Positions 4,510-34,532 of a stretch of DNA of 34,931 bases are shown here, one piece after another. Source of the DNA: Candidatus Hydrogenedentota bacterium (lineage in GTDB: Bacteria; JBFMHD01). Numbering within the stretch: position 1 is the stretch's first letter; each line of letters opens with the position of its first letter. The notes beneath the pieces are model-generated. The model did not search any database. It was not told where the DNA came from and worked only from the letters and a program-made list of their open reading frames with translations. The translations under genes and the position numbers were made by a program. The DNA lies in contig JBFMHD010000004.1 in assembly GCA_040752395.1 (NCBI GenBank), forward strand, positions 1 to 34,931. The letters run 5' to 3'.

Positions 4510-4538
4510 GAATGATTTTGGAATTTGGAACACAAAAG

Positions 4539-6744: not shown

Positions 6745-6749
6745 CTGCT

Positions 6750-8879: not shown

Positions 8880-8882
8880 ATA

Positions 8883-10064: not shown

Positions 10065-10072
10065 GCCATCAA

Positions 10073-10145
10073 TTATCTTGCTTCTTGCTTCTTTCGTTAT
10101 CTTGCTTCTAACTAAAGGCACAAAGGGAGACAGGAGACAGGAGAG
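10073..10145 (+). repeat. Heptamer repeat module, copy D
   Basis: (cttcttg)n, ggcacaaa, (aggagac)n; 10076-10104 is the reverse complement of 8512-8540 at 27/29 nt. Confidence 0.88.
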
Positions 10146-10155
10146 GGTACGATTT

Positions 10156-11160
10156 ATGGATACTAAAACGATTATTAAAAAACTACCAAAGGTTGATCTC
10201 CATTTACATCTTGACGGCTCACTCAGAGTTGAAACTATCAGGGATCTGGCTATCTCCCATAAATTTAAACTTCCAACAGAAGACCCAGAAAAACTCGCTA
10301 AATATTGTCACGTTTCAAAAAACTGTAAAAGTCTCGCTGAATTTTTAGATGCTTTTGAATTCTTTTATCCTTTTTTAAAATTTCCAGACTCTGTTTTTAG
10401 AATGGCTTATGAGTTATGTGAGGATATGGCAAAAGATAATGTTGTATATTTTGAAACAAGGTTTGCTCCACATCTTCAAGCTACATCTAAAATGTCTGCC
10501 AGGGATGTTGTAAAATATGCACTTAACGGCCTTAAAAAAGGAAGTAAAGATTTTGGGGTTGAGTTTGGTGCTATACTTTGTTGCTATCGGCCTCTACCAC
10601 CTGAAACATCTTATGAAACCGTACTAATAGCTGAGAAATTTCTTGGTGACGGTGTTGTAGGTATTGATTTAGCAGGCGATGAATCTAAATATAAATTAGA
10701 GATCCATAAAAAAGCACTGACCAGAGCAAGAGAGATAGGTATTCCGATAACGGTCCATGCTGGTGAGGCTGCCCCAAGCTGGAGCGTCTGGGACGCTCTG
10801 AATGCAGGTGCTAAAAGAATCGGACACGGTGTAAGAATCAGAGAAGATAAAAAATTATATCAAAAAATTATTAAAGAAAAGATACCACTTGAAATCTGCC
10901 TTACAAGCAATGTTCAAACACGTGCAGTAGAGTCCTACGAAAAACATCCATTCCCAGAATATTACAAAAACGGTATTGTTACTGTGCTTAATACAGACGA
11001 TCCCGGTGTAAGCAACATAGACCTTAGTTATGAATATACCATAGCCTGTAAAAAGTATAGATTAAGTATAGATGATTTGAAAAAGATAGTAAACTATGGT
11101 ATTCAAAGTGCATTTTGTTCTGATTCTATTAAGGTTGAGTTAAGCAAAGGGATATCTTAA
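10156..11160 (+). CDS. add: Adenosine deaminase
   Basis: PKVDLHLHLDGS, GIDLAGDE, TVHAGE, RIGHG, CLTSN, NTDDP. Confidence 0.95.
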   Translation: MDTKTIIKKLPKVDLHLHLDGSLRVETIRDLAISHKFKLPTEDPEKLAKYCHVSKNCKSLAEFLDAFEFFYPFLKFPDSVFRMAYELCEDMAKDNVVYFETRFAPHLQATSKMSARDVVKYALNGLKKGSKDFGVEFGAILCCYRPLPPETSYETVLIAEKFLGDGVVGIDLAGDESKYKLEIHKKALTRAREIGIPITVHAGEAAPSWSVWDALNAGAKRIGHGVRIREDKKLYQKIIKEKIPLEICLTSNVQTRAVESYEKHPFPEYYKNGIVTVLNTDDPGVSNIDLSYEYTIACKKYRLSIDDLKKIVNYGIQSAFCSDSIKVELSKGIS

Positions 11161-12585: not shown

Positions 12586-15500
12586 ATGGTAACTTCAAAT
12601 TATATTTATACTAAAAGAATTAGTTTAATAGTGTCATTGATTTTAATATTAGTCATAGTTACGTCAAACTCATTAATCGCAGCTCCATGGTGGTGGGTCC
12701 ATTTTACTAAAGGCGATGATGTCTCTGATGCACTCTCTAATTATGAGAAATGGATGGCTTTTGCTATAAATGATGCTTCGACATCGGAAACTGTGTATGT
12801 TGCTTCATATACCTGGGGCACTGGGAACCTTGACCCGATTAGTGGGTTAGATGGAGGTAATGATGTCGGCGTAAATGCTGTCGCAGCTGCAAAAAACGAT
12901 GTTTTTGACCCGAATAATTATATAATAGATGATGGAGGAGGTGAACCTGATCTTGCTCAACTCTCAGCTGATGCAAACAATGTTCAGGTAACAGAAGCAG
13001 GCGCAAATATTCATCACAATAAATTAGTTGTCATCCCTGGTCGCAGAGTAATAACAGGCTCTGCCAATTTTACAGCAGGCGCTTATTCTTCTCAACCTAA
13101 TAATATGCTTGTTATAAAATCAAGTATGTCTGATGTTATAAATCGTTATGTTAGCCAGTGTGAAGAGTTACGTGATAGTACTTTTCATGATAATACTCAG
13201 ACCGGGCCGCCTTATTATTTTAACTCTCCGAATGGTGATACAATAGAGGTTTATTTTTCGCCTGATGACCATGGCTGGATACCAAAAGGTAATGGCCCGG
13301 GATATTCTGACCCTGACGTAAATGCTGATAGTGATGTAGAAGCAGTTGTTATGCGGGTTATTAAAGAAGCCAGAGAAAGTATCTTTTATATAATAAATTT
13401 CAGCAATATGCAATACGGCAGTTTTTCCCCAAATGTTATTGAAAAGTTAGTAGATTCGACCAGATTTGTAGAGGGTGTGTTTCATAGCGGTACTGGTTTT
13501 GGTTCTTTACAAAACGACCACACCTGTCGTGATTCAGATGCCTGGTTTAATGATGGTCTGAACTCTGATGATGAGATACATCATAAAGTATATATAATAG
13601 ACCAGGAAGTCATTATTACTGGTTCTGCTAATACAACCTCAACATCTCTGTCTAATCCCTCTGGAAATGATGAAAATATAGTTGTTGTTCATGATTTCAG
13701 GCTTGGTCGCAGGTTCACTCAAGAGTATCGCAGATTAATGGCTCTTTTATCGCCAGAAAATATCGGTCAGGCAGACTCGTTTGAAACATCACCGCCGCAG
13801 CCTGTTTCTGGATTAACCGTCACTCCTGGCTCAACAAATTTTACCTTGAGATGGAATAAATCAAATGCAACTGATTTCTCGCGATATTATATCTTTATAT
13901 CAACCTATCCTATTTATACTAATGCCCAGTTAGGCGATAGTGTTGATCAGGATAATGATGGTTATTACAACGAAGACCCGCGAGGCGATGCTGATGGTTT
14001 CGCATCAGGTCAGACTTTAGCATCTGCGCAAAGCGCTAATGATGATGCTGATGCTTTGATCGATGAGGATACCTGGCTCTGGCCAGAAGCTCAAATAAAA
14101 GATGTTAATGATACAGATATCGTATTAACTACTTATAATGTAGGTGATGCCCTTGTTTCTGGTATCGACTACTGGTTTGCAGTTGTTGGTGTTGATACTC
14201 ACGGCAATGAATCAATTGCTGATACTGAAGGACCCTACCAGTTAAGCTCATCAGTGACATATTACTTAAATGTAACCAAAATAGCTGATGTCACTGATAC
14301 TCCAGTGATGCAGGGTGATACACCTGTAACAGTATTCTTTCTTAATATTGATTCTGACACTGATAATGACACCCTTAAAACTTTTAAAATAAAAAATCTT
14401 GGGAGCGCTGATACTAATGACATTCGAGAGGTTGCATTATATCATGATGTTAACAGAGACAGTCATCTTACCTCAGGTGATACCCTTGTAGCAATTTTAA
14501 GTTATAGTTCAGGCTACTTTCAGAATACTTCTTTTGCTGACTCGATACCCGATGCAGGCGATTCGTATATCGTTGTTATCTGGCTATACGATACAGCTGG
14601 GATAGGTGATACTTTACAGTTTCAGATCCCTGCTTATGGTGTTGAATCAATCAAAGCTGATTCAGGCCCATCCTCTGCTTTAACAAACAATACTATCCTG
14701 GTCATACAGAGTGTAAATCAGATTGATGTTGATACTCGTGGTGATTATGCGAGTAATTCTTCTGTTACAAAAGGTGATACTATTCTTGTTATGGCTTTGC
14801 GTATCTCTGTTACTCAGTCGAACGATACTTTAACCGCATTCGCTATCACGAACCTCGGCACAATGACTACCTCTGATATCGATTACATCTCTGTTTACCA
14901 CGACGCTTTTTCAGACTCACAGCTCACATCTGCTGATACTTTTATAAAGACTCTGACTTTTACAGGCAGTTCTACCTGGAAAGATACACAAATTAGTTAT
15001 ATCTTCTATGGTACAACACTTGATGTAATAGTTGCTGTTAAAACCTTGACTTCTGCAACTGGTGGCAACACTTTTCAGGGTAGAATCCCTAGCCGAACAG
15101 TTGACTCACAGAAAGGCGACTCCGGGCCACTATCTAATCTTCAGACAACTGCTCTCTTTACTATCGCTTCTGATACCTCGCCTGATACTGCTATTGTTTT
15201 AAATGAATATATCCCTGACCCCAGCGGACAGGACCACGATTATGACGGTACCCAGTTAGATGCTGATGAGGAATTTATTGAGTTATATAATAACTCAGAT
15301 GGCAGTGTTGATATAGGGAACTGGAAATTAGATGATGATTTCTCACCAGGTGATATAACCATACCAGCAGGTGTAATATTAGGGCCACGCCAATTCTTTA
15401 TAGCCTATGCTGCAACTGATTCTGCAGGCCGAAGCTTTTATATTTATGATACAACTGGTAGAATTATATTAGACTCAGGTGCTTGGTCAGGTACCTGGAA

Positions 15501-16854
15501 CGGGCTTAATAATAGCCAGGATTCAGTGGCTGTCTCTAATGCTTCTAATACATTAATTGATACAGTATATTACACTGCTTATACAGCAGGCAAATCTAAT
15601 TGTCGTTTAATTGATGCCTGGTCAACGTGGAATACAGATATGAATGTTACGCCTGGGAAAAACAGTGATCCCACAGCTACCCAGAACAGACCCTCACCGA
15701 ATGGTTATATCTCAGTTTTAGCAGCCCCGGACTCGATTACTTCAGGTGACACAACACTTTTAACTATGATAGTAAAAGATTCTAATGATGATACAGTTAC
15801 TGCTTTTACATATCAATGTAATATTTCTATCTCTACGGGTAATATTTCTCCATCTCAAACCTCTAATTTTGTTAATGGTTCTGGCACCCAGACTGTTACT
15901 GTTTCCAACATTAATGAAGGCGGCACCACAATCATAACAATATCTTACAATACTACGACTTATGGGACAAAAGCTATTTGGCTTAGTCCGCCGGCACCAG
16001 CAGATTATGATGGTTCTGGCACAATGTCGATATTTCAATATGGTGTTGTTGTTACTTCTGATACCGAGGGAGATACTGCTCAATACGATATTATATTTTA
16101 TGCAACAGAGAATCTTGCTTCTGGCACTGTCACTTTTATCATACCGCAATCCTGGAGCGATTTAAACAACACCTATTATCTGCCTGGCTATTTTACTGTG
16201 AGTTCATCTCAAGCAATTGCTGACTCGTATCTCATCTCTGAGACAATGGTAAAGATCAGGCTCGGTGCTATTTTCAATACTGGTGATACTGTCGCTATAA
16301 AATACGGGGCAGGTGTTGGTACAGGTGCTATTATTGGCAGTGGTAACCCGGCAGTTTTCTATGTTTATTCTGCTGATTCGAATACCACACAGGGCGGCGA
16401 AGAGTTTGCTGATAGTGTACCTATAACTATTTACTCACCTATAAATGTTTCAGGCACTGTTACTTTTGAAGGAAGAACTACCCATTACGGTGCTATTATT
16501 GAAATTTATAACGGCACTGATACTTATCAAGCAACAAGCGATACCTCAGGTACTTTTGTTGTACAGGTCTGGACAAGTGGTCTCTATAATATAGAAGTTA
16601 AAGAATTCAGATCCCTTGCTAAAAGATTGTATAATTATAATATCACAACTGATACAAACATAGGAACGATCGGGCCTCTTTTAATTGGCGATTCAAGAGA
16701 AGATAATATGATAAATCTGCTTGATGCTTCATTTGTAAAGATTTATACAGGTACAACATCAGATACCAGAGCAGATGTAAATAACTCAGGTGGCCCTGTT
16801 GATAGTACTGATATGAGTTATATAAGAAAGAATTTCGGTCGTATAGGCGAGTAG
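12586..16854 (+). CDS. Secreted PLD-superfamily (nuclease-like) protein with FN3-like, Ig-like, lamin-tail and C-terminal dockerin-like domains (P1)
   Basis: Hydrophobic leader; HNKLVVIP..GSANFT and HHKVYIID..GSANTT; IVLNEYIPDP..EEFIELYN; GDSREDNMINLLD..ADVNNSGGPVDSTD; start uncertain (12550 or 12586). Confidence 0.8.
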   Translation: MVTSNYIYTKRISLIVSLILILVIVTSNSLIAAPWWWVHFTKGDDVSDALSNYEKWMAFAINDASTSETVYVASYTWGTGNLDPISGLDGGNDVGVNAVAAAKNDVFDPNNYIIDDGGGEPDLAQLSADANNVQVTEAGANIHHNKLVVIPGRRVITGSANFTAGAYSSQPNNMLVIKSSMSDVINRYVSQCEELRDSTFHDNTQTGPPYYFNSPNGDTIEVYFSPDDHGWIPKGNGPGYSDPDVNADSDVEAVVMRVIKEARESIFYIINFSNMQYGSFSPNVIEKLVDSTRFVEGVFHSGTGFGSLQNDHTCRDSDAWFNDGLNSDDEIHHKVYIIDQEVIITGSANTTSTSLSNPSGNDENIVVVHDFRLGRRFTQEYRRLMALLSPENIGQADSFETSPPQPVSGLTVTPGSTNFTLRWNKSNATDFSRYYIFISTYPIYTNAQLGDSVDQDNDGYYNEDPRGDADGFASGQTLASAQSANDDADALIDEDTWLWPEAQIKDVNDTDIVLTTYNVGDALVSGIDYWFAVVGVDTHGNESIADTEGPYQLSSSVTYYLNVTKIADVTDTPVMQGDTPVTVFFLNIDSDTDNDTLKTFKIKNLGSADTNDIREVALYHDVNRDSHLTSGDTLVAILSYSSGYFQNTSFADSIPDAGDSYIVVIWLYDTAGIGDTLQFQIPAYGVESIKADSGPSSALTNNTILVIQSVNQIDVDTRGDYASNSSVTKGDTILVMALRISVTQSNDTLTAFAITNLGTMTTSDIDYISVYHDAFSDSQLTSADTFIKTLTFTGSSTWKDTQISYIFYGTTLDVIVAVKTLTSATGGNTFQGRIPSRTVDSQKGDSGPLSNLQTTALFTIASDTSPDTAIVLNEYIPDPSGQDHDYDGTQLDADEEFIELYNNSDGSVDIGNWKLDDDFSPGDITIPAGVILGPRQFFIAYAATDSAGRSFYIYDTTGRIILDSGAWSGTWNGLNNSQDSVAVSNASNTLIDTVYYTAYTAGKSNCRLIDAWSTWNTDMNVTPGKNSDPTATQNRPSPNGYISVLAAPDSITSGDTTLLTMIVKDSNDDTVTAFTYQCNISISTGNISPSQTSNFVNGSGTQTVTVSNINEGGTTIITISYNTTTYGTKAIWLSPPAPADYDGSGTMSIFQYGVVVTSDTEGDTAQYDIIFYATENLASGTVTFIIPQSWSDLNNTYYLPGYFTVSSSQAIADSYLISETMVKIRLGAIFNTGDTVAIKYGAGVGTGAIIGSGNPAVFYVYSADSNTTQGGEEFADSVPITIYSPINVSGTVTFEGRTTHYGAIIEIYNGTDTYQATSDTSGTFVVQVWTSGLYNIEVKEFRSLAKRLYNYNITTDTNIGTIGPLLIGDSREDNMINLLDASFVKIYTGTTSDTRADVNNSGGPVDSTDMSYIRKNFGRIGE

Positions 16855-16867
16855 ACTGTAATCCCTG

Positions 16868-17095
16868 CTCCGAACTCCGAACTTTTTCGAAGGAGTACTC
16901 ATGAGCGCGGTTTGCGCTCTACACAATATATGAAAAACTAAAGATGATATAAAAAGAGTCGTGAGTCGCAAGTCGTGAGTCAAAACAGGACTCGAGACTC
17001 AAGACTCAAGACTTTTCAGCTGGCTCCGGGCTTCGGGCTCCAGCCGGCTGTAGCCCGTAGCCCGTAGCCTGAGTTTTACAATGGAGCAAAGCGAC
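16868..17095 (+). repeat. Modular heptamer-hairpin repeat, copy E (5' part)
   Basis: Matches copy B from ctttttcgaaggag to the (tagcccg)n tract; ends with the atggagcaaagcgac module. Confidence 0.95.
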
Positions 17096-17139
17096 AAGGG
17101 GCCACATAAGAGAAAATAGTAAGGAATGGTACACATTTA

Positions 17140-17454
17140 ATGAGATGGTTTAAGGATGTTTATAATCGACGGGTTCGATTGACGGATGAACGACAAGAAC
17201 ATCTTGAAATTGATCATCCTGAAATGGCAGGGCAAATTAATAAAATAGAAGAGACCTTGTTAAGTCCTGATCAGGTAGTCAAATCAAAAACAGATCCAAA
17301 TGTTGAATTATTTTATCGACGTTATGATATCACACCAGTCACTGAGAAGTATATATGTGTTATAATTAAGGTATCGATGGGAGACTTATTTATTATAACA
17401 GCATATTTCACGAATACAATAAAGACAGGAGAAATATTATGGAAAAAACAATAA
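17140..17454 (+). CDS. Putative BECR/RelE-like toxin (PBECR2/DUF4258-like)
   Basis: VRLTDERQEH..HPEM..IEETL..PD..ITAY; overlaps a DUF2283-like partner. Confidence 0.65.
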   Translation: MRWFKDVYNRRVRLTDERQEHLEIDHPEMAGQINKIEETLLSPDQVVKSKTDPNVELFYRRYDITPVTEKYICVIIKVSMGDLFIITAYFTNTIKTGEILWKKQ

Positions 17455-17642
17455 AAATTTGGTATGATCCAGAGGGCGATTATTTAGAGGTAATTTTTGA
17501 ACGGAAAACTGGTTACTTTAAAGAAACTGAAAATGATGCAATAATGGAAAAAGTCGATGGAGCAGGAAACATTATTGGTTTTTCCATTCTAAAATTGAGT
17601 ACACTCAAAGACCAGAAACCACTTTCAGTAAGTTTGCGATAA
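17439..17642 (+). CDS. DUF2283-family putative antitoxin
   Basis: IWYDPEGDYLEV..VDGAGNIIGFSIL; SD AGGAG. Confidence 0.8.
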   Translation: MEKTIKIWYDPEGDYLEVIFERKTGYFKETENDAIMEKVDGAGNIIGFSILKLSTLKDQKPLSVSLR

Positions 17643-17698
17643 AATGTCATGTCCAAATTATTAGACCCAAACTACGGAGACACACGACTTTTTTACTC

Positions 17699-17850
17699 TA
17701 GTCCGTAGTTGGTAGCCCGTCCTGATACCTCTCACTTCTTCCGTTATCTTGCTTCTTGCCTCTTGTTTCTACTTGAAATTATTAGAGTTACGAAGTTTTT
17801 CGAAGGAGTCGTCATAAGCGCGTTTGCGCTCTACACAACGTATGAAAAAC
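17699..17850 (+). repeat. Modular heptamer-hairpin repeat, copy F (3' part running into 5' module)
   Basis: tagtccgtag..gtcctgatacctctcacttcttccgttatcttgc.., then ttttcgaaggagtcgtcat..gcgctctacacaa. Confidence 0.93.
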
Positions 17851-17901
17851 AGGTTTTTTTCCTTACTTTTAACTTTTAACTTGTCAAAGGGAGATTCTAA
17901 A

Positions 17902-20900
17902 ATGATTAAAAGAACAATTTTTATTCTCGGATTTTTACTTTTATATCCACACCTCGGTTATGCATCAACTCTTCGTATCGTTAGCCCTTCAGATACCGAT
18001 GTATTCGATACATACGGAACAATCGTTGATGATTCAGGTATGGTTGATGACTATATAACTTTAGAGGTCTGGGTTAATGCTCTTGATACTGATATTAACG
18101 GTGTCGAAATCCATTTAAGTTATGACCCTGCGATACTTCAACTTCAGGATGTAGGTGGTGACAGTTTCCCGGCCGATAGCCCTGGTATTCAAATATGGGA
18201 AGACCACTCCCAACTCGGTGATATTTTAGTAAATATCTCTTCTGGCGATACTATAGATTATTCGAGCCTGACCAATGCTGACTCGATTAAATTAGATGTT
18301 CGTGTCTGCACGATGTTATTTAAAATCCTGAGCTATACAGAAACAACTGTTATAGGCTGGGATTTTGATGAAGCAAATAACCGTGTCTCAAGGGTAACCG
18401 AAGCTGATAGCGGGTCTAATGTCTTAACAGCTGTTGATTCTGGTATCATAACTATTCAGCAAAACAATACCGGTGACTCACATCTCCTTATCAGTGAAAT
18501 ATTATATGATGGTGTCGGTTCACCTGATGAAGAATATATTGAAATATACAACCCGCGTAATGATACAGTTATTCTAACTAATTATTACTTAAGTGATGCA
18601 ATGGATACATATTTCAGTTTACCAGAAGATACCCCAACTGTATCATCTGGTGATTTTATAGTTAGATTTCCACAATCAACATTTATTGCTCCGAGAGATA
18701 CAATATTAATTGCTATAAATAGTAGTGATTTTAATACAGTCTATCCTGGGCTTCATCCGGACTTTGAAATAAACCAGGACGGTAACAGCGATAATGTAAG
18801 CGATATGGTCATTATAGAATCCAGTGGAACGATAAGCTTATCAAACACAGGTGAAGGTGTGGTGATGTTTTACTGGAATGGAGTAACTGATTTAGTTTAT
18901 GATGTTGATATAGTTGTCTTTGAAGATATAACTTATGTTCCTGATAAAACAGGTTATTCTCAGGATGGCCCTGATATAGGAACAGAAACCTCAACGTATA
19001 AAACAGATGATACCAGTGCTTATACTCTCGCTTCTAATTCTGCAACCGGCCAATCCCAGACACGCATCGATGTCAATGAAGATAATGAAACGCGATTAAA
19101 TGGTAATGGTATCACAGGTAATGACGAGACAACTGAAAAATTGAGCCTATCATTTAATGGTACCGCATCCCCTACACCATATCATGACGATTTAATAGCT
19201 TATAAAACAGGTGATTATTCTGGCTATTTTACTGATGGTGAAACAAGTGTTGAGGTACTTCAATTTTATCTTGCGCCTGCAAGCTTTATAGATGATACAC
19301 TTGTACAATTAACCCTGCGAAACCTTGGAAATATGGATGATACTGATGTTGATACTGTCTCTTTGTATATCGATGCAGATAAAAGTCTTACGCTATCTTC
19401 ACCAGATACTTTTCTTGGATACCTTACATGGAATCAAGGTAGTAGTGTCTGGGAGACAACATCTGCAAGTATTTATATACCCCAATCAGGTGAAACAATA
19501 CTTGTTATATTAGACATCTCTGATTCGGTCTCGAATGCTGATACATTCAGAGCGCAAATAGATACCTGGGCGTTACGTATGACCACATCTGATAGTGGCC
19601 CCTTTGTGGCGATAACCAATGCCAATGATTTAACAGCTGTTGTAGGTCAATTACTTGTCTCGAAGAATACAGATGTACCTATAAATTATTTTATTCCAGG
19701 CTCAACTAACATAACTATAGCCTCGCTTTATATTCGTGGCAGCACATCAGGTGACACTTTAACTAAATTCACCATTAGAAACATCGCTAATCTTGATACC
19801 CAATATATAACAGCTGTAAAACTCTATGCTGATGCTGATGCAAGTTATACTTATTCAGCACCTGACACATTCGTAGCACTACTACTCTATGATACTTTTA
19901 ATCTCTGGTTCGATACTGACACAATCCAGTATCCGCTTGCTGGAGCTGGCAGTAATTTTGTTGTTACAATAGATGTCTCAATCTCTGCTATCTATGAGCG
20001 AGACTCATTTGTAGCACAGGTCGTAGCTAATGAGTGCTCCGGCGTTATAGCAACTCCGGGCCCAAATACTAATGTGACCAATGCCTATGGCCAAATACTT
20101 GTTAACCCACCAGGCATAGCTACGCACCCGGTAATAAGCCAGGTATATCCTAATGATGCCACTGGTAATAATAATGGCTTATTTATTGAATTGTATAATC
20201 CCACAGATACTGCAGTGGACATATCAGGTTGGACCATACGTGAAGATAATAATAACCTTGTCTTCACAATAGGTAACGTTACCTTACAACCAGGTCAATA
20301 TTATCTTATAGGTGACAGGGATTATGTAACTGAGAGTGATAACAGCCAGTGGCCTGCAGCTGATACCCTGACTTCCACTACTATTGGCTGGAGTGTTACA
20401 AATGATGGTATCTACCTTGCTGATACAACTAAGAGGATAATCGATGCTGTTGGCTGGGGCTCACCAGCAAGTAGTAATAATTATGAATCCGATCCAGCGA
20501 CAGCAGGAAATGGTGTCTCTATTATGCGGCGATCAGCTTATGGTGCCACATCTACTGAGATGCTTATTGGTGGCAGGCGATGGGTTCAGGGGCGTGGCTA
20601 TGATTCATTTAATAATGCCTATGATTTCCTGAGTATCTCAGACACAACGCTTATCGAACCTAAAAATTCATCCTATCGCCGTGAGTTCCCTGACTCATGG
20701 ATTGTTACTGTTACTAAAACAGCTGACCCAGGACCTGCAACAATATATTCAAATGATACAAAAGTCACTGTTATGGCTATAGGCATAACTGGTGATACTG
20801 ATAATGATAATCTCACTATATTTAGTGTGAAAAATATCGGTAGCGCTGATACTCAATCTATTAGTAAAGTTGAAGTATGGAAAGATAATAATTTAAATAA

Positions 20901-24531: not shown

Positions 24532-24562
24532 GAGTCGTGAGTCGTGAGTCAATGGAAAGATA

Positions 24563-24823
24563 ATGAACATAACAAAGTTTGAAGAAATTAAAGCATGGCA
24601 GATAGCAAGAAATATAGTGAATACAATTTACAAAATAACTCACAGCTATCATTTTGATAAGGATTTTACTCTTCGTGAGCAAATAAGGCGTGCCGGCATA
24701 TCAGTTATGTCAAATATTGCAGAAGGTTTTGATCGTGGCAGCGACAAAGAATTCGTTCATTTCTTATTTATTGCCCGTGGATCTATATCAGAAATTAAAT
24801 CTCAAGACTCAAGACTCTTATAG
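24563..24823 (+). pseudogene. Four-helix-bundle (IVP/TIGR02436-like) protein, C-terminally truncated
   Basis: FEEIKAWQ..QIRRAGISVMSNIAEGF..FLFIARGS.SEIKSQ, then runs into a gactcaa tract and stops at 86 aa, without the last helix. Confidence 0.8.
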
Positions 24824-24828
24824 AATTT

Positions 24829-27800: not shown

Positions 27801-30800
27801 TTTTTATGATGATACACCTATTCAACCCTCGATACTCGGCGATACTGTTTATTTTAACCCTACGTATCTTGGTGCAAACCAGATGAATACAATCACTGTT
27901 TATGTTTATGATGATAATGAAGATACTGTTACTGGTTCATCTGCATTTATTGTTATTGCCGGGATTGACACAGGCTTGAATGAAGATTCGTATACACTGG
28001 TTTATCAAATCCCTCAGGATACAATCTCACAGAGCATAACTATTGTAGCATTGGACCTATTAGGTTACTCAGATACAGTTGTTGTATTCTTTGTAAAAGA
28101 TACTTCTCCACCGCTGGAACCACAAAGAATATCCCCTTCAAGTGGGGTTGAAACAAATGCGGTTAATATCACTTTTAGCTGGACAACATCATCAGATACA
28201 GGTGCGGGTTTATCAAGATACAGGTTACAGATTGATACTGCAGGAACTTTTGTAAATAATTTAGTTGATTCGTATAACGGACTGCTTACATCAACAAGTG
28301 TATTACTTCCACCTAATGACACCTATTACTGGCGAGTTATAGCTATAGATTTAGTCTCTAATACTGGTGCGATGCTAACAGATTCTGTGATTATAGATAC
28401 CTCGTTCCCTGATACACCACGACTTCTATTACCAATTCTGGGATATGAAACAAACGTTGTGGCTATTACTTTCAGATGGGATACTGCTTGTGATTCTGTT
28501 TCTGGTTTATCCGGTTATAGAATCCAGATAGACACTTCAAACACGTTTGCATCACTTAAAATAGATACCTATCTTGGGAATAGAACAGATACAACACTTT
28601 CTTTAATCCCGAATGATACTTATTACTGGCGGATTATTGCAATAGATGATGTTGGTAACACTTCAGTCTCTTCTGATTCGTACCTAATTATTGACACTTT
28701 ATCACCAACCGTACCTTCTCTGGTTTCGCCAGCGAGCAGTCTCTGTACTAATGCGATAGCTGTAACTTTTGACTGGGACACATCTTATGATACAGGTTCA
28801 GGGCTTTCTTATTACAAGATACAGATTGATACCTCAGGTAATTTTACTACTTTAATATTTGATACACAGATTATAACCAGAACCGATACAACCTTGAGTT
28901 TACAGCCAAATGATACCTATTACTGGCGCATCATTGCTTTTGATGATGTGGGTAACACAAGCTCAAGCCAAACAAGGTTTATAATAATCGATACCCAGCC
29001 GCCGACAACTGTTACTTTACTTAATCCACCTGATCCTACAGAGACCACACAAACCACAATAAATTTTACCTGGACAGCATCAGCTGATACTATCTCCGGG
29101 TTGGCCGGATATTATTTACAGATAGATAGCTCTGGTAATTTTATCAGTCCGGATACAAGTATATTCACAATTTCAACCACGGGTACGTATACTTTTACAG
29201 TCTATGATACTTATTACTGGCGTGTCTTATCAATAGACACAGCTTCTAATATATCGATCTCATCAACATCTACTCTAATCATTTCTGTTCCTGATACAGC
29301 GCCGCCTGAGACACCTGTCTTAATCTCTCCAATCGGCTCTACCGAGACAAATGTTATACCTGTATTATTTATCTGGTCAGACACAGCAGCATCTGAACCT
29401 GATTTTGACCATTATACTATTCAAATCGATACTGCTTCGAATTTTATAAATTTAGTTTTCAGTGGTGACACTAATAACTCTGAGACATCCTATATTTTAG
29501 TTTATAGTGATACTTATTACTGGCGGGTAATAGCCTATGATTCCTCAAATAATGCAAGCACATCAACAATAGGGGTCTTTATTTTTGATAGAACCGCACC
29601 GAATATCCCGCAATTATTCAGTCCCAGTAATGGGGCAAACACTACTACACTTGTCATTACTTTTGACTGGAATGATGTATATGACACTCACTCGGGTCTA
29701 AAAAACTATGTTTTATACATTGATAATGATTCAGGTTTTGCTGTGCCTGATTTTGTAGATACCGAAACTCAATCAGGGACCACAATAACTTTCGGGACTG
29801 CTGATACTTATTACTGGAAGGTCTATGCTTATGATGACCTGAATAATACTTCTGTCTCTGCTGTTTATTCATTTGCTATTACTACTGTTGATACCCAGGC
29901 ACCGACAGCGTTTACTCTGACATCACCTGCAAATGGTATTGAAACCAGAATATTAACAATAACTTTTAGCTGGCAGAACTCATTTGATGATACAAGTCCA
30001 CCAGTAACGTATAGATTGCAGATAGATACAGAGCCAACTTTTACCGATTTACTCGTTGATACCTACTGGCTTACTGAAACATATACCACCTACAATTTTA
30101 CAGGTAGCGATACTTTATACTGGCGTGTTATCGCAAGAGATAATGTAGGTAATACAACTGTTTCTACCGAAACAAGATATTTAATAGTAGACACACTCGC
30201 ACCAGCAATACCACAACTTTTTTCACCGATTAATAACGCAGGAACAAGTGTGTTTATAATAACATTTGATTGGAGTGATGTATCTGATAGTCATTCTGGT
30301 TTTGCGTTTTATGTATTATATGTTGACAATGACTCGACTTTTGCATCACCGACTTTTGTAGGAACCGGAACAATATCAGGAACCACTGTATCATTTGGAA
30401 CTTCTGATACTTATTACTGGAAAGTCTATGCTTATGATGATTTAAACAATACCTCTGTCTCAATTGTAGAAACTTTTTCTATAACGATAACTGATACAAC
30501 ACCGCCATCAGCATTTAGTCTGCTCATCCCGTCTAACGGTTATATAACAAAAAATCCGTTAGTAGTTTTTACCTGGTGGCCTTCTACTGATGATACAAGC
30601 CCTCCAGTCTCTTACCGAGTCCAGATAGATACTGAAAATACATTTAATGGCTTGCTTCTTGATACTTACTGGCTGTCAGCCAATAATCTGAATTATACAT
30701 TTTCAAGCAGTGACACATTATACTGGCGTGTCATAGCAAAAGATAATGTTGGTAACACAACCCCATCCAATGAAACGTGGTATCTAATTGTAGATATAAC

Positions 30801-33009
30801 AAAACCTGATAAACCTGCTCTTATAACCCCAACTGCTGGTGAAAATACTTCTACTTTACAGATAAAATTTGATTGGCAGGATTGTATCGACTCTCATACA
30901 GGTGTCGGTACATACGTTATTTATATAGATACCTCACAATCGTTTTCTAACACTTATAAAATAATTGATACAATCACAATATCAGAAACCACTGTTACGT
31001 TAACATATGCTGATACCTATTACTGGGTGGTCTTTGCAATAGATAAAGTGGGTAATATAAGTGATACATCTAATACAGAATCTGTTGTTATACTTGGCGG
31101 TGTGAATTCATTCCTTGTTTATGCACCCTCGGTTGTAACAGTTGGCAGCAACTTTAATATTACTATAACAGCAAAAGATGTGCTTGGTAGCGTTATGACA
31201 AATTATAGCGGTACCGTGAATCTGATCATAACCGCAGGCACTATCTCACCGCAAACACTGACCGGATTTGTTAATGGTATAAAAACAGCTGCAGTATCAA
31301 TAAATACAACAGGAACAACAGTATTAACAGTTAATGATTCTGTAAACAACGATGCTTATGGTACAGTGTTAATATTAGTAAAAGCTGATACAGTATCAAG
31401 ATATATAGTCGACGCACCATCGCAGGTTAGCCGTGGCATAGGATTTAATTTAACAATAACAGCGATTGACCAGTTCGGTAACGTGGTTGATTACTATACA
31501 GGTACAGTAGCATTAAGTGCTGATGCATCGTTTACACCAGAAACAACACCCTGTTTTGTTAATGGTGTTATAACTCTTAGTGTAACCTTTACTCAGACAG
31601 GCGCTGGTATAACAATAACAGCAAACGATGGCACGCATACAGGTACGGATTATATAACTATAATCAATGGTATTGACAGATACGTTATATCCGCACCATC
31701 AACTGTAAGCTCAGGTCAAAGTTTTACTATCGATATCATTGCACGAGATGCTTTAAACAATGTCGTGAGCGGGTTTAATGATACAGTATCTTTTTTTGTA
31801 TCTTCAGGAATTGTATCACCAGCTTTCTCAGATAGTTTTACAAATGGTATCTTAATGAACCAGAATATGCAAATAACAGGCATCGGAAATATCACACTAA
31901 CAGCAACAGATAATACAGCTTATGGTACAGCTTTGATTGCTGTAGCATCTGTCCTGAGTATAGGCTCTGTTCAATCAGTTGATCTCTCTTTTAATGATTT
32001 AGGAAATACGCTGGCGGTTGAACTGAGACTTATAGATTCAAATGGTGATACAATGATTGTATTCCCATTTCCTGTTGCTTTGATTGTGCCAAGTCAGGAT
32101 CCGATATCAGGAAAGACAATAACTGATACCTATTATACCCAATTTACAGCAACAGGTACTGCAAGCGCTCAGATACCTGACTTGGGTTTTCCATTTGAGA
32201 TAACTGTTCTTCTTGATACTGTAAATGCTTTTAGAAACACAACACTTGACAGCGGCTCAAGAACCCTGAATCAAACAGATTATACAAGTGTGATAATACC
32301 CCAGGGCTCTTTAGGTGCAACAAATGTAAATAATGCAAAAATAATTATAAAAACAGAACCTGATACTACAATTCAGAACGATATAAGTGCTATAAACCAG
32401 TTGATAAATACAAACAGCCAATTAAAACTAATAGATTCTGCATTGCGTAATTTTACAATACTTGTAAATAATGTAGAATACAGCATATTTGATAACTATA
32501 TAACTATCCGGTTGCCATGGAGTGATACTAATCCAGAAGATGGTTATGTTGATAATGAGCAGTATGTTCATGAATCCACCTTAAGGGTATATCATTTTAA
32601 TGAAAATTCTAAATTATGGGACTTGGTACCAGATGCTACATTTGATTATGATGTGAATGTAGCGACAGTCAGGGTTAAAGAATTCTCTTCTTATATTTTA
32701 ATGGGTATACCCGGGCTCAATAATATCTCAGCTGTAACAAGCTACCCAAATCCATTCAGACCAAGACAGACGCCAAAAGTTGTGATAGATACTTTTACAA
32801 GAAATCATACCTATTTATTTGTGAGGATATACACAGTTACAGGTGATTTAGTGCGAGTCATTCAGGGGAATGACGTGGATTGCGCAAATGGTGTAGCGTA
32901 CTGGGATGGCTTAAATGGAAACAGAAAAGAAGTAGCACCAGGATTATATATCTATGTAGTAGAATCAAGCTTTGGCAAAGCAGTCGGTAAGATGACAGTG
33001 ATAAGATAG
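24829..33009 (+). CDS. Giant secreted protein: cohesin-like, 14 FN3/Ig-like YYWRV repeats, FlgD-Ig/T9SS-type C-terminal sorting domain (P3)
   Basis: Signal peptide; GDTFTLELWI..INGVAAYLLYE; 14 (D)TYYWRV..D..GN-type motifs; SYPNPF..IYTVTGDLVR..WDG..VAPGLYIY. Confidence 0.82.
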   Translation: MKRETWYKLFSILFLLVIGFFLVNDRDLEAVREIRIVAETDTAGANILDKWVRAGDTFTLELWIETDTNINGVAAYLLYEANKLNLIGTGFTKDTTIFGDTALLDTGFDYGGSSDTMIYAILTTADSLAMNSSARVCTLTLAATFNEDTGIIGFNLDYTNNKASMIASIYATDVLNSLDSGVIRIDATPPKDTFILISPIDGETRVQGSIQFVWQTTYDTGSGLSHWVLEYDTDLTDSFNPSLYRVYTSDSVCTYTPAINFTIGTWVWRAAAVDEVGNTSSWSLPETFVVILPTTPQVYIDSPTGYVPTNDTPFYVAGSTLNTQAGDTVRIRVNGIIQDTKILSIANDTFAFDTVSLSPGYDTIIVELIDSQGVVIDSDYVVVEYNDSVYVIIQIPVPSGFSYDTNYCTVTISGTAGDVENGDSIYLYRNNIIQNTYSLTGNSWSGTVTLSGLGDSIVVKVKDRFGNIDYDTITINYDTLASIEILSPINPDTRIDTVIISGTVADVLPGDTVWLYVNGVLTDSKVLTDTTWSCTAYLKGMGDSVVAKLTDRYGNIAWDTITLNLDTTPPTTVTLLSPPDATETRFTAITFIWVTSIDTQSGLFEHRLQVDTLGTFAYFIYDSSAGTGTSGILTLAANDTFYWRVLAIDDAGNTSVSNTRTILIDTIIPPKPTIISPANNTETRAQPVYFDWTDIIDTTSGLNRYHIQIEISGVVVVDSDVTTSDTSITLNEETYYWRVVAIDDAGNTSGYTDSSLVIIDRTAPVIWVVLIETSDSRYFTDSGGIDTTLLSDTVYFNNTGAGDGQRDTVQLTVSGADTVIFEEHFGDTTFYDTQTPYLYAYTIEIGYADTMMIIIARDNAGNEDSVTICWIRDITPPPPVSLVTPLDGQITGDTTPSFTWNQTTDTQSGTKVYLIEIATDNLFTNNIETSFIYTTSYTSSGLDSGTYYWRVIAYDTVSNYDTLSCETRTLRIDTSFPYITAITIISSVPSYFYDDTPIQPSILGDTVYFNPTYLGANQMNTITVYVYDDNEDTVTGSSAFIVIAGIDTGLNEDSYTLVYQIPQDTISQSITIVALDLLGYSDTVVVFFVKDTSPPLEPQRISPSSGVETNAVNITFSWTTSSDTGAGLSRYRLQIDTAGTFVNNLVDSYNGLLTSTSVLLPPNDTYYWRVIAIDLVSNTGAMLTDSVIIDTSFPDTPRLLLPILGYETNVVAITFRWDTACDSVSGLSGYRIQIDTSNTFASLKIDTYLGNRTDTTLSLIPNDTYYWRIIAIDDVGNTSVSSDSYLIIDTLSPTVPSLVSPASSLCTNAIAVTFDWDTSYDTGSGLSYYKIQIDTSGNFTTLIFDTQIITRTDTTLSLQPNDTYYWRIIAFDDVGNTSSSQTRFIIIDTQPPTTVTLLNPPDPTETTQTTINFTWTASADTISGLAGYYLQIDSSGNFISPDTSIFTISTTGTYTFTVYDTYYWRVLSIDTASNISISSTSTLIISVPDTAPPETPVLISPIGSTETNVIPVLFIWSDTAASEPDFDHYTIQIDTASNFINLVFSGDTNNSETSYILVYSDTYYWRVIAYDSSNNASTSTIGVFIFDRTAPNIPQLFSPSNGANTTTLVITFDWNDVYDTHSGLKNYVLYIDNDSGFAVPDFVDTETQSGTTITFGTADTYYWKVYAYDDLNNTSVSAVYSFAITTVDTQAPTAFTLTSPANGIETRILTITFSWQNSFDDTSPPVTYRLQIDTEPTFTDLLVDTYWLTETYTTYNFTGSDTLYWRVIARDNVGNTTVSTETRYLIVDTLAPAIPQLFSPINNAGTSVFIITFDWSDVSDSHSGFAFYVLYVDNDSTFASPTFVGTGTISGTTVSFGTSDTYYWKVYAYDDLNNTSVSIVETFSITITDTTPPSAFSLLIPSNGYITKNPLVVFTWWPSTDDTSPPVSYRVQIDTENTFNGLLLDTYWLSANNLNYTFSSSDTLYWRVIAKDNVGNTTPSNETWYLIVDITKPDKPALITPTAGENTSTLQIKFDWQDCIDSHTGVGTYVIYIDTSQSFSNTYKIIDTITISETTVTLTYADTYYWVVFAIDKVGNISDTSNTESVVILGGVNSFLVYAPSVVTVGSNFNITITAKDVLGSVMTNYSGTVNLIITAGTISPQTLTGFVNGIKTAAVSINTTGTTVLTVNDSVNNDAYGTVLILVKADTVSRYIVDAPSQVSRGIGFNLTITAIDQFGNVVDYYTGTVALSADASFTPETTPCFVNGVITLSVTFTQTGAGITITANDGTHTGTDYITIINGIDRYVISAPSTVSSGQSFTIDIIARDALNNVVSGFNDTVSFFVSSGIVSPAFSDSFTNGILMNQNMQITGIGNITLTATDNTAYGTALIAVASVLSIGSVQSVDLSFNDLGNTLAVELRLIDSNGDTMIVFPFPVALIVPSQDPISGKTITDTYYTQFTATGTASAQIPDLGFPFEITVLLDTVNAFRNTTLDSGSRTLNQTDYTSVIIPQGSLGATNVNNAKIIIKTEPDTTIQNDISAINQLINTNSQLKLIDSALRNFTILVNNVEYSIFDNYITIRLPWSDTNPEDGYVDNEQYVHESTLRVYHFNENSKLWDLVPDATFDYDVNVATVRVKEFSSYILMGIPGLNNISAVTSYPNPFRPRQTPKVVIDTFTRNHTYLFVRIYTVTGDLVRVIQGNDVDCANGVAYWDGLNGNRKEVAPGLYIYVVESSFGKAVGKMTVIR

Positions 33010-33013
33010 AATT

Positions 33014-33076
33014 AAGATAACGAAAGAAGCAAGAGGCAAGAGGCAAGATAACGGAAAAGAAAGATAACGAAAGAAG
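33014..33076 (+). repeat. Heptamer repeat module, copy H
   Basis: aagataacgaaagaagcaagaggcaagaggcaagataacgg, as at the start of copy C; inverse of the pyrimidine tracts in A, B, D, F. Confidence 0.88.
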
Positions 33077-33107
33077 TAAAAAATTGAAAAGATAAGGAAA
33101 AGAAAAA

Positions 33108-34532
33108 ATGGGTCTTGATAGCAGAAAACAAAATGTTAAAAACCTATCTGTATTATCTAAATCTCTGTATTCTAAATTCCTTAGTACATCATACTTTGCT
33201 TTTTCTTCTTTATATTGCTTCTTACTTCTTGCTTCTCCAACATATGCTAAGCAATACGCTGGTACAACAGGTGCCCCGTTTCTGTTGATTACACCTGATG
33301 CAAGGAGTAGCGCGATGGCTGGCTGCGGGGTATCGTTCCTGGATGATGCAGCTGGTTTATCACTAAACCCAGCATTACTCGGATTAAGACACAAGAGCCA
33401 TATCCAGGCGCTATATTCAGAGCGGTTTGCTGATATAAAGTATAATTATCTTGGTGTAGCTATGCCTGTGTTTGAACGCGGAAACGCAGGAGTAAATTTA
33501 GTAAGTTTACGAGCAGAAGATACAAGAAGAGAGGCACCTGGCATAATAATGGGAACCTTTGATGTAACTGACCTCGCGTTTACAACCGGTTACTCGCATT
33601 ACATACTGGATAATCTGATACTTGGCGGTGATGTAAAGATCATACGCCGGGAGATAGAGAGTGTTACAGCAAACGCTTTTGCACTCGATGCCGGGGTTCT
33701 GTATAAAGATGTGGTAAATGGACTTAATTTCGGCTGTAGTTTGCAGAATTTAGGCACTGATATCGAGTTCGAACAAGCTGATTTTGACTTGCCATTGACA
33801 CTTCGCTTTGGTGGATCCCTACAGACTAAGTACCTAAACTTCGCAATGGATTTTGATAAAAGCAAAGAGAGATCATTAAGAATGAACATCGGGGCAGAAT
33901 TCAAGCTCGGTGAGGTATTGAGACTGCGAACCGGATACAAGATAGGAAACGACTATAGTGGTATAGATGATTGGACATTAGGGTTCGGGATAAAATATGG
34001 TATATGGTCATTAGATTATTCGTATGAACAGTTTGAGGACTTAGGAGACGTTCATAGATTCCAGACAGGTATAGAGTGGGGTAAAGTAAGAGACGAGATA
34101 AAGCCTGAAGAGATACCAATCGAAGAATTGAAATTTACACCAACAGAGAAACAGGTCTCTCAATTAGAATTGAGACCAAAAATAATATTCCCACTCTATC
34201 ACAAAGGGACATTCTGTATAATAAAAGGCGAAGAAAAAGACTGGATCAGAGAATCAATCGAGAGGGTATTTATCTCAGGGATGGAGAAACATAGGTTTGT
34301 GAAATATATTAACCTCGAAAATGAAGCTGTATTAATAACTGAATTAAAGTATATAGAGTCAGATGGAGATATCAAGGTAGTTGGTTATGTTTGGGATATA
34401 GAGAAGGCTGATGCTATACTCAGAGTTGAGCGTCAAGGAAAGACCGAAGAGATAGTAAATATAGTTTCAGATATAGCCTCTGAAATCTCTTCTACTCTTT
34501 TCGGCCCATTAGCAAAACCCTCCAACCACTGA
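33108..34532 (+). CDS. PorV/PorQ (UPF0164)-like outer-membrane beta-barrel with C-terminal extension
   Basis: GTTGAPFLLITPDARSSAMA..NPA..DAGVLY..QNLG..LPLTLRFG..LRTGY..DYSY..LGDVHRF. Confidence 0.85.
   Translation: MGLDSRKQNVKNLSVLSKSLYSKFLSTSYFAFSSLYCFLLLASPTYAKQYAGTTGAPFLLITPDARSSAMAGCGVSFLDDAAGLSLNPALLGLRHKSHIQALYSERFADIKYNYLGVAMPVFERGNAGVNLVSLRAEDTRREAPGIIMGTFDVTDLAFTTGYSHYILDNLILGGDVKIIRREIESVTANAFALDAGVLYKDVVNGLNFGCSLQNLGTDIEFEQADFDLPLTLRFGGSLQTKYLNFAMDFDKSKERSLRMNIGAEFKLGEVLRLRTGYKIGNDYSGIDDWTLGFGIKYGIWSLDYSYEQFEDLGDVHRFQTGIEWGKVRDEIKPEEIPIEELKFTPTEKQVSQLELRPKIIFPLYHKGTFCIIKGEEKDWIRESIERVFISGMEKHRFVKYINLENEAVLITELKYIESDGDIKVVGYVWDIEKADAILRVERQGKTEEIVNIVSDIASEISSTLFGPLAKPSNH

Follow-up and report, generated by a model that had tools for sequence, protein, structure and literature searches.

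A candidate cohesin–dockerin surface assembly with a PLD-superfamily enzyme and a PorV/PorQ-family barrel in an uncultured diderm bacterium

INTRODUCTION

How might a secreted enzyme be held at the surface of a diderm bacterium by a row of proteins of which only one carries a sorting domain? The question is raised by contig JBFMHD010000004.1 (34,931 nt; hereafter the window, C284 in our numbering) of a Candidatus Hydrogenedentota assembly, GCA_040752395.1. The 3′ two thirds of the window consist of four plus-strand open reading frames (ORFs), termed P1 to P4. A preliminary description, made from the letters, had P1 ending in a dockerin-like module, P2 starting with a cohesin-like and ending with a dockerin-like module, P3 starting with a cohesin-like module and ending in a sorting domain, and a PorV-like gene following; ORF positions and module searches bear this layout out. 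We consider it fairly probable that P1–P4 form a modular surface assembly built on type-II-like cohesin/X-dockerin pairs, with the enzyme, a member of the phospholipase D (PLD) superfamily, at the tip and the barrel at the membrane.

The four genes are as follows.

12586–16854, plus strand: P1, a secreted enzyme of the PLD superfamily that ends in a dockerin; 1422 aa when started at ATG 12586 (ORF open from a GTG at 12550).
17902–24531, plus strand: P2, putative adaptor protein; 2209 aa from the ATG at 17902 (ORF open from 17824).
24829–33009, plus strand: P3, putative anchoring protein; 2726 aa with a signal peptide, a cohesin-like module, a long immunoglobulin (Ig)-like stalk and a C-terminal domain (CTD) for sorting or anchoring.
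33108–34532, plus strand: P4, PorV/PorQ-family outer-membrane barrel; barrel part at 33264–34073.

The starts chosen for P1 and P2 are also those of database proteins P0145 and P0007, respectively. The genome (G000; 2.84 Mb, 349 contigs, 94% complete) is that of a deep-branching lineage and has no relative at any rank up to phylum among ~200,000 species genomes, and the relatives offered share the domain alone.

RESULTS

Cohesin-like modules at the N-termini of P2 and P3

17962–18474, plus strand: N-terminal cohesin-like module of P2; sub-threshold to PF00963, homologous to the P3 N-terminus, with profile matches to cohesins.
24916–25404, plus strand: N-terminal cohesin-fold module of P3, from structure prediction, Foldseek and a profile match to PDB entry 3l8q.

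Against PF00963, the N-terminal 171 aa of P2 scored 22.1 bits (21.1 in a second search; cut-off 24.1), aligning to profile positions 5–53 only. The P3 N-terminus gave no Pfam match. The two N-termini are nonetheless homologous to each other (37% identity, E 2.4e-14), and no other pair in the genome is related at that level. A profile built from both, plus one relative, retrieved 139 proteins at E ≤ 1e-3 among 1.84 billion representatives. Pfam scans of 27 of these 139 (P0006, P0008–P0032 and P0035, leaving out P0003 and P0007, which are the window's own) placed PF00963 above its cut-off in 17, often in tandem and in several cases together with the CTDs of type IX secretion systems (T9SS). The other 10, which are the nearest relatives, constitute the divergent subfamily itself. 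When the alignment was extended to 15 sequences and compared with the PDB, cohesins accounted for 22 of 25 matches, the best being a type II cohesin dyad (3l8q, E 1.8e-8). Both modules are thus homologous, at profile level, to accepted cohesins.

Structure prediction points the same way. AlphaFold2 (AF2) modelled P3 residues 30–192 with a predicted local distance difference test (pLDDT) of 84.1 and a predicted template-modelling score (pTM) of 0.83. Foldseek then gave 80 PDB matches for the module at E ≤ 0.001, and all 37 matches listed were cohesins (best E 1.1e-7; template-modelling scores 0.67–0.78). The P3 module is therefore predicted to adopt the cohesin β-sandwich, and P2 would share this fold given their 37% identity. 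The reading of both N-termini as cohesins, for which the preliminary description had proposed hidden Markov model (HMM) and structure searches, is sound on profiles and on the predicted fold of P3, even though the Pfam score is not reached. By sequence, the two modules appear to belong to a divergent cohesin subfamily that escapes standard domain models. A word-indexed search with the P2 module among proteins of 301–2000 aa gave no match; relatives of the size of P2 and P3 lie outside that range.

Dockerin cassettes at the C-termini of P1 and P2

16444–16851, plus strand: C-terminal cassette of P1, a CarboxypepD_reg-like β-sandwich plus dockerin (dockerin at ~16669–16851), from profile searches.
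24118–24528, plus strand: C-terminal cassette of P2, of the same composition (dockerin at ~24349–24528), from profile searches.

A dockerin consists of two EF-hand-like calcium loops, each followed by a helix, within ~60–70 residues at a protein terminus, and this architecture is what we found here. The C-terminal 68 aa of P1 exceeded the PF00404 cut-off of 22.9 bits both alone (24.4) and in a genome search (23.2). PF00404 and our own profile together recovered three dockerins in the genome, those of P1, P2 and a third protein, P0005 (27.3 bits in the genome search, 22.7 in a full-length scan). All three end in the β-sandwich–dockerin cassette, at 37–39% identity; P2 and P1 share 37% over 140 aa. 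A 12-sequence dockerin profile found cellulosomal dockerins as its nine best PDB matches, led by the X-module/type II dockerin of CipA (2b59_B, E 9.5e-7), with which it has an INLLD segment in common. The C-termini of P1 and P2 are thus dockerin-homologous, as had been anticipated.

In the 12-sequence alignment, repeat 1 reads D-x-N/D-x-D-N-x-I-N-L-L-D. P1 and P2 both carry DNxINLLD, placing LL at loop positions 10–11 as the preliminary description had noted, and so does P0005. Repeat 2 differs among the three, with ST, QS and YL at the equivalent positions, and its loop is 1–2 residues longer in P1 and P2. Because the dockerins match the type II dockerin of CipA and the cohesins match type II cohesins, the pair resembles type II, the CarboxypepD_reg-like module standing where the X-module would be.

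P0005 is encoded on contig C112 (L004:12293–19336, minus strand), unlinked to the window and adjoining TonB-receptor and CobN genes. Its 2347 aa combine Peptidase_M6, GH18, fn3, three large repeats, CarboxypepD_reg and the dockerin. The earlier statement that the complex has no recognisable glycoside hydrolase therefore holds within the window, but not for the genome.

A predicted interface centred on the LL pair

We modelled the P3 cohesin (15-sequence alignment) with the last 69 residues of P2 (5-sequence alignment) and two calcium ions. The prediction scored 0.83, against 0.02 for the best of three controls, so the pairing modelled came through the AlphaFold-multimer check that had been suggested. 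The pass mark is one that 116 of 157 solved complexes and 2 of 215 mismatched pairs reached in a calibration run with neither a riding ligand nor custom alignments. Contacts agreed to at least 95% across runs, and the pLDDT of the partner was at least 80. On the dockerin side, the contacts predicted with the lowest error fall on the LL pair (residues 97–98) and on residue 101. A pass of this kind denotes likeness to solved cohesin–dockerin complexes, not binding.

Recurrence of the gene order

The order of the genes recurs outside the window. The A4 profile matched 7 of 401 genomes across bacteria, its own genome included; the three-sequence cohesin profile, run against genome contigs, matched only a G013 contig that was already known. 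An 11.3-kb metagenome contig (L007) carries an orthologue of P1 (40% identity over 1155 aa) with the same motifs and cassette. It is followed directly by a gene for a protein with a cohesin-like N-terminus, a β-helix, a lamin-tail domain (LTD) and fn3, which runs off the contig. Database protein P0011, of the same architecture as the latter, ends in a dockerin cassette, as does P0013. P0014 (4467 aa) resembles P3, with a cohesin-like N-terminus, Ig repeats and a CTD, and P0028 (453 aa) consists of a cohesin-like module and a CTD only. The whole order is seen on contig C64 of genome G254.

G254:C64 gene 1: 5′-truncated protein ending in a dockerin cassette.
G254:C64 gene 2: transposase.
G254:C64 gene 3: protein with a cohesin-like module, LTD, fn3 and a cassette, split by an assembly gap.
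G254:C64 gene 4: 764-aa protein with a cohesin-like module, fn3 and a CTD.
G254:C64 gene 5: P4 homologue (28% identity, E 4e-33).

In three unrelated genomes (the window, L007 and G254), a gene ending in a dockerin thus adjoins one starting with a cohesin, and the proposed check for synteny in relatives gave the full order in G254 and the P1-type to P2-type step in L007. The tip protein of G254 has only spacer modules and the cassette in common with P1; therefore, the cargo varies while the chain design is kept.

Other settings of these modules were also seen. Loci L002/L006 (G013:C342) and L010 (G182:C336) come from two high-GC genomes of one family, in which the socket sits on a clostripain-type (C11) peptidase, not on a scaffold. 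In the window's own genome, contig C302 (L011:241–5999, minus strand) holds four genes. The first product is large, and its C-terminus resembles a dockerin by eye but is not supported by Pfam. The second, of 298 aa, combines a weak cohesin match (PF00963 21.3 bits; own profile E 6.5e-4) with a CTD. A PorV-like barrel carrying fused TPR repeats comes third, and a small β-barrel protein of 260 aa fourth. A secretin gene lies ~6 kb further on (C302:11401–11904). C302 is a putative second plug-and-socket set, with the design dockerin protein, cohesin plus CTD, barrel.

The sorting domain of P3 and its neighbouring barrel

32743–33006, plus strand: C-terminal sorting/anchoring domain of P3 (T9SS-type CTD); sub-threshold model matches, 20-member family in the genome.

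The last ~87 residues of P3, its CTD, score below the cut-offs of FlgD_ig (18.9 versus 27 bits), CHU_C PF13585 (16.6 versus 27), Por_Secre_tail PF18962 (16.2 versus 27) and TIGR04183 (18.9 versus 23). Its best NCBIfam matches are the C-termini of the PorZ (5.1e-9) and PorU (3.1e-6) models, whose CTDs we take to be the two that escape cleavage and are retained on PorQ and PorV. An HMM iterated within the genome found the P3-type CTD in 20 ORFs, 1–15 residues from the stop in all of them, and the C302 paralogue passes FlgD_ig at 28.1 bits. The domain thus has the features of a CTD: a β-sandwich of ~80–90 aa at the extreme C-terminus of many secreted proteins. Within the window P3 alone carries it, as had been stated.

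P4 scores 167.7 bits against the PorV/PorQ family NF033709 (cut-off 90) and stays below the equivalog cut-offs of PorV (NF033710, 73.2 versus 250) and PorQ (99.8 versus 220). It also gives 27.7 bits with PF19572 and 13.4 bits with PorP/SprF TIGR03519 (cut-off 90.55). Judged by these scores, P4 is a PorV/PorQ-family member, neither PorV nor PorQ proper. The genome contains 23 matches to NF033709, 18 of them above cut-off. A PorV-like ORF lies directly 3′, on the same strand, of 15 of the 20 CTD ORFs (14 flagged by script, plus C196 from coordinates); of the remaining five, three end <200 bases from a contig end and two have room but no PorV-like gene. Examples of cargo–barrel pairs are C317:14548–30371, C235:1555–10104, C336:382–10519 and C282:6806–12999.

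This pattern resembles a one-cargo-one-barrel sorting system outside the Bacteroidota. Because there are ~15 pairs of CTD cargo with its own barrel, and because the P3 CTD best matches the C-termini of PorZ and PorU, P4 is probably a dedicated anchor or shuttle of P3 more than a general PorV. What had been described as a PorV-like gene after P3 thus keeps its family and its place, but is not PorV proper and is one pair among many.

The ~150-aa C-terminal extension of P4 (34074–34529, residues 323–474, plus strand) has no family match. Paralogous barrel ORFs range from 308 to 899 aa, their extensions vary widely, and one carries TPR repeats.

As for the rest of the secretion machinery, a 1917-aa SprA-like ORF on contig C85 matches TIGR04189 in three pieces (91, 67.6 and 21.9 bits), each below the cut-off of 200, and Pfam SprA_N at 29.7 bits, above the cut-off of 27. 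The catalytic region of PorU was not found in the 94%-complete genome, all 12 NF033707 matches falling at model positions 956–1094, the CTD of PorU itself. Nor did GldK, GldM or GldL (TIGR03525, TIGR03517, TIGR03513) give a match there; the GldM and GldL controls were silent in every control genome, so that these non-detections are weak evidence and do not amount to absence. What was detected of the proposed T9SS-like export is thus a part, comprising the CTD, the SprA-like ORF and P4. The genome also has five secretin genes, and a route resembling type II secretion is possible for P1, P2 and P0005, which lack a CTD.

Spacer of P2 and stalk of P3

18487–18729, 20131–20475, 21634–21999, 22576–22917 and 23491–23889, plus strand: five LTDs of the P2 spacer (region 18487–23889); PF00932 136.8 bits in five stretches, and local HMM.
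P2 residues 464–599, 617–753, 968–1103 and 1122–1256, plus strand: four ~135-aa modules, local HMM.
25435–31098, plus strand: P3 stalk, in which an ~87-aa Ig/fn3-like repeat occurs 14 times with other β modules between, local HMM.

From N- to C-terminus, P2 comprises a signal peptide, the cohesin-like module, a spacer of five LTDs and four unnamed β modules, fn3, and the β-sandwich with dockerin. Its LTDs are probably substrate- or surface-binding modules. Pfam models matching the P3 stalk include Ig_Rha78A_N (71.1 bits) and SusE (55.5 bits).

The P1 enzyme

12679–13809, plus strand: catalytic region, with two HxK...GSxN (HKD-type) motifs at 13015–13068 and 13579–13632.
14287–15147, plus strand: two copies of the unnamed ~135-aa β module (iterated local HMM; weak BNR_assoc_N, 21 bits).
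15178–15591, plus strand: LTD (PF00932 64.5 bits; local HMM).

In a Pfam scan, P1 matched PLDc_2 (67.2 bits in two stretches; cut-off 27), PLDc (30.3 bits) and LTD, together with a weak dockerin. Two HKD motifs and a PLDc_2 score above cut-off place it in the PLD superfamily. In the first motif P replaces D, as in most of the family. Seven metagenomic members of this family, at 35–52% identity, all keep both motifs, and six of the seven end in the β-sandwich–dockerin cassette. Against the PDB, the family profile matched Zucchini/MitoPLD (4ggj, E 1.1e-9) with its second half and Nuc (1byr, E 5.1e-8) with its first; classical phospholipases D scored E 0.007 or worse. Since the best solved relatives are single-HKD nucleases, one per half, P1 reads as a fused Nuc-like two-HKD pseudo-dimer, a putative phosphodiesterase, and it may be a nuclease instead of a phospholipase. 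The ESM Atlas placed the PLD region in generic PLDc_2 clusters at 0.87, under the 0.9 level, a lead that adds nothing. The ~135-aa module, with the features DTLT.F.I.NLG ... DSGP, occurs twice in P1, four times in P2 and also in the G254 tip protein; no Pfam family matched it above threshold.

Candidate substrates of P1 are nucleic acid, phospholipid and other phosphodiester polymers. LTDs accompany phosphoesterases, including the nuclease ExeM (PMC6085458). The LTDs of P1 and P2, taken with the nucleoside-catabolism genes upstream, are compatible with DNA scavenging. We rejected those genes as proof of a DNA substrate; the gene upstream of the P1 orthologue on L007 encodes a GDSL lipase instead, which leaves the neighbourhood pointing in more than one direction.

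Neighbouring genes

17140–17454, plus strand: small ORF of 104 aa in the 1-kb P1–P2 spacer (16855–17901); PF18810 PBECR2 25.5 bits, below the cut-off of 27.1.
4512–11160, plus strand: nucleoside/nucleic-acid salvage run comprising both nucleoside phosphorylases, RecJ, an AAA_33-like protein and adenosine deaminase.

Genes upstream of P1 encode an SLT transglycosylase, WbqC, a DegT aminotransferase, RecJ, adenosine deaminase, an AAA_14/DUF4143 ATPase, and purine and pyrimidine nucleoside phosphorylases. The position of the salvage run beside Nuc-like P1 may reflect a DNA-scavenging link or coincidence. The 104-aa ORF probably lies outside the P1–P4 system. A terminator scan of the P1–P2, P2–P3 and P3–P4 gaps gave no plus-strand terminator-like site, and a promoter scan of the spacers between P1 and P4 gave nothing decisive.

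DISCUSSION

A model of the assembly

The module identities, the cohesin fold, the predicted interface on the LL pair, the gene order and the cargo–barrel pairing were computed directly. From these we infer binding, order and stoichiometry along the following lines. The CTD of P3 would carry it across the outer membrane by a T9SS-like route, through the SprA-like translocon, and would then stay bound to P4, its own PorV/PorQ-family barrel, as PorZ does on PorQ and type B cargo on PorP/SprF. The stalk, of ~2,400 residues, would hold the single N-terminal cohesin away from the cell. Into this cohesin the cassette of P2 would plug in a calcium-dependent manner, leaving the N-terminal cohesin of P2 as the next socket, and P1 would plug in through its equivalent cassette, as could P0005. 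Because sockets lie at the N-termini of these proteins and plugs at their C-termini, the catalytic domain of P1 would come to lie at the far tip. The order from distal to proximal would be PLD...Doc, Coh...Doc, Coh...stalk...CTD, barrel, the same as the gene order in the window and in G254. That gene order mirrors assembly, as the preliminary description held, is in keeping with its recurrence in G254, but the modules by themselves cannot fix it.

None of the outcomes named beforehand as grounds for giving up the idea was encountered: the N-termini read as cohesins by predicted fold and homology and the C-termini are dockerin-homologous, relatives show co-occurrence, and the one complex modelled was predicted to pair.

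Weighing the alternatives

Several observations weigh against the assembly proposed here. Neither N-terminal module reaches the PF00963 gathering threshold, and the C-terminus of P2 stays below the PF00404 cut-off (20.4 bits alone and 19.4 in the genome search, versus 22.9). The complex was predicted for a single pairing, P3 cohesin with P2 dockerin, and since many cohesin–dockerin complexes have been solved, its pass may draw on memory of those structures. At the predicted contact positions the cohesins of P2 and P3 have 10 of 24 residues identical, for 36% identity overall. All three dockerins present the same INLLD helix-1 face, so the order cannot be read from the modules, which neither fix nor exclude P1→P2→P3. 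In genome G094 the cohesin-like module heads a giant protein with no neighbouring dockerin gene, and in G013 and G182 it heads a C11 peptidase; given these different contexts, it is not confined to operons of this kind. P1 and P2 have no CTD, and the CTD route leaves their crossing of the outer membrane unexplained. A weak point on the same side is that the catalytic part of PorU, GldK, GldL and GldM went undetected, the T9SS being detected in part. The AF2 model of the P1 PLD region (7-sequence alignment) reached a pLDDT of 39, so that the nuclease-like assignment comes from sequence profiles.

The shared helix-1 face invites another arrangement, in which any dockerin (P1, P2 or P0005) binds either cohesin and P2 binds P2, giving variable P3-(P2)n-enzyme filaments whose assembly order is not the gene order. 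The DNxINLLD motif with its LL pair, the centre of the predicted interface, is indeed present in all three dockerins; dockerins outnumber cohesins of the subfamily by three to two in the genome; and P2 bears both module types. Yet 14 of the 24 predicted contact residues differ between the cohesins, some specificity could come from the second dockerin repeats, and the distal-to-proximal gene order recurs in G254 and partly in L007. We regard such a promiscuous network as possible, if on the unlikely side. Less probable again is that the modules do not pair at all, the N-terminal β-sandwich serving as an adhesin or as a tip that binds carbohydrate, the EF-hand module as a stabiliser dependent on calcium, and P1–P3 being independent secreted proteins. 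Non-cellulosomal cohesins and dockerins of unknown function are widespread, both cohesin modules lie under the Pfam threshold, and the module occurs in G013 and G182 on a C11 peptidase that lacks a visible partner, and in G094 on a giant protein without a dockerin gene beside it. However, profile and fold evidence place these modules among cohesins and dockerins, the interface was predicted at the canonical recognition positions with controls passed, and dockerin-ending and cohesin-starting genes adjoin one another in the window, L007 and G254.

A further alternative concerns the membrane end. P4 could be an ordinary PorV-type shuttle and P3 a standard type A cargo; a sortase would then remove the CTD, and P3 would be left on lipopolysaccharide or released. 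P4 does match PorV models (NF033710, 73.2 bits; PF19572, 27.7 bits), and the P3 CTD weakly matches TIGR04183 (18.9 bits). But P4 remains far under the PorV equivalog cut-off of 250, most of the 23 family matches in the genome lie directly 3′ of one CTD gene each, the PorU catalytic region was not found (the NF033707 matches being confined to the CTD, positions 956–1094), and the P3 CTD fits best to PorZ and PorU CTDs, the presumably uncleaved ones. We judge this version improbable, to nearly the same degree as modules that do not pair. A last idea, which we offer as a long shot, makes the dockerin a trans-acting export tag: P1, P2 and P0005 would assemble with P3 by cohesin–dockerin pairing in the periplasm, where calcium is present, and ride its one CTD through the wide SprA-like translocon, and the chain of ~6,300 residues would be a harvester of extracellular DNA, with a Nuc-like tip, an LTD-rich adaptor and nucleoside-catabolism neighbours. 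If this were true, one sorting domain and one dedicated barrel would export and anchor a whole chain.

Implications

Assembly through cohesins and dockerins is best known from Gram-positive cellulosomes, and P1–P4, as a surface assembly of type-II-like pairs, would add a compact three-tier version in a diderm. The ~15 cargo–barrel pairs, in a genome with no detectable PorU or PorK/L/M, bear on T9SS-like sorting outside the Bacteroidota and on whether PorV-family barrels serve as general anchors. The cohesins and dockerins of this system are small single-copy modules, directly testable in vitro. If specific, they would provide new orthogonal plug-and-socket pairs with which to display proteins on the surface of Gram-negative bacteria.

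Comparison with known systems

At the level of the enzyme, the closest solved counterparts are Nuc of Salmonella (1byr) and Zucchini/MitoPLD (4ggj). The two halves of the P1 catalytic region each align to one such monomer, and the H, K and GSxN residues are conserved. Nuc and Zucchini are single-HKD, whereas in P1 two HKD units are fused into one chain of ~360 residues, which is part of a dockerin protein of 1,422 aa. ExeM (PMC6085458) is like P1 in that an LTD accompanies the catalytic part, but its nuclease domains belong to superfamilies other than PLD. A literature search, with subscription journals outside its coverage, found no paper on a dockerin-tagged PLD enzyme.

At the membrane end, barrel-anchored CTD cargo has precedents in the T9SS of Bacteroidota, namely SprB–SprF, PG1035–PorP, PorZ–PorQ and PorU–PorV (PMC9143113 and PMC12618676). 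There, too, a type B CTD protein is encoded beside its own FadL-like barrel, the proposed surface holder, as P3 is beside P4, and the pairing is repeated, with 12 type B substrates in F. johnsoniae set beside ~15 pairs in G000 (PMC9143113, PMC12618676). Unlike type B barrels, those of G000 score in the PorV/PorQ family NF033709, not in PorP/SprF. The P3 CTD stays below the cut-offs of both the type A and the type B models, the genome lies outside the Bacteroidota, and PorU, GldK, GldL and GldM are undetected. With the same coverage, we found no report of PorV-family barrels matched one-to-one with CTD cargo outside the Bacteroidota.

Among cellulosomes, the nearest systems are the type II pair by which the scaffoldin CipA of Clostridium thermocellum is fixed to SdbA-type proteins of the cell surface (2b59, 3kcp, 4fl4), and adaptor scaffoldins, for example ScaB of Acetivibrio cellulolyticus (3l8q). 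The dockerins of P1 and P2 come after a β-sandwich module, as in CipA, whose X-module/type II dockerin is the best PDB match of the dockerin profile; the type II dyad of ScaB is the best cohesin match. The three tiers are alike as well: an enzyme, an adaptor with cohesin and dockerin, and an anchoring protein. P1–P4 differ in having a diderm host and an anchor made of a T9SS-type CTD and a barrel in place of SLH domains or a sortase. Each protein has one cohesin and none in tandem, these cohesins lie under the Pfam threshold, and cellulases are replaced as cargo by a PLD/Nuc-like phosphodiesterase and an M6-peptidase/GH18 protein. Pfam scans of P1–P4 showed no carbohydrate-binding module (CBM). 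With single cohesins, no CBM in these scans and PLD and M6/GH18 cargo, P1–P4 are not a cellulosome in the strict sense, and probably represent a non-cellulose variant of the cellulosome principle.

The one comparable system that our search on cohesins, dockerins and type IX secretion found, within the same coverage, is the cellulosome-like complex inferred for Ca. Stygibacter (Cloacimonadota) by Williams et al. 2021 (PMC8542988). In the accessible portion of that report, Ca. Stygibacter is, like G000, an uncultured Gram-negative lineage in which enzymes that are not cellulolytic, among them peptidases and a homologue of GH18 chitinases, bear dockerins, and its cohesin protein, like P3, has a conserved T9SS-type CTD proposed to attach it to the cell's own surface. 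A scaffold of cohesins anchored by a CTD and loaded with dockerin-tagged non-cellulolytic enzymes is, to that extent, already known (PMC8542988). The complex of Ca. Stygibacter is built on one 3,755-aa scaffoldin with tandem cohesins and CBM2/CBM3, and that portion of the report describes no adaptor tier (PMC8542988). G000, compared with the system as described there, has single cohesins on an adaptor and an anchor, a conserved PLD cargo and a dedicated PorV-family barrel beside the anchor. What is new here is thus the single-cohesin adaptor tier, the conserved PLD/Nuc-like cargo, a cohesin subfamily invisible to Pfam and the dedicated PorV-family barrel.

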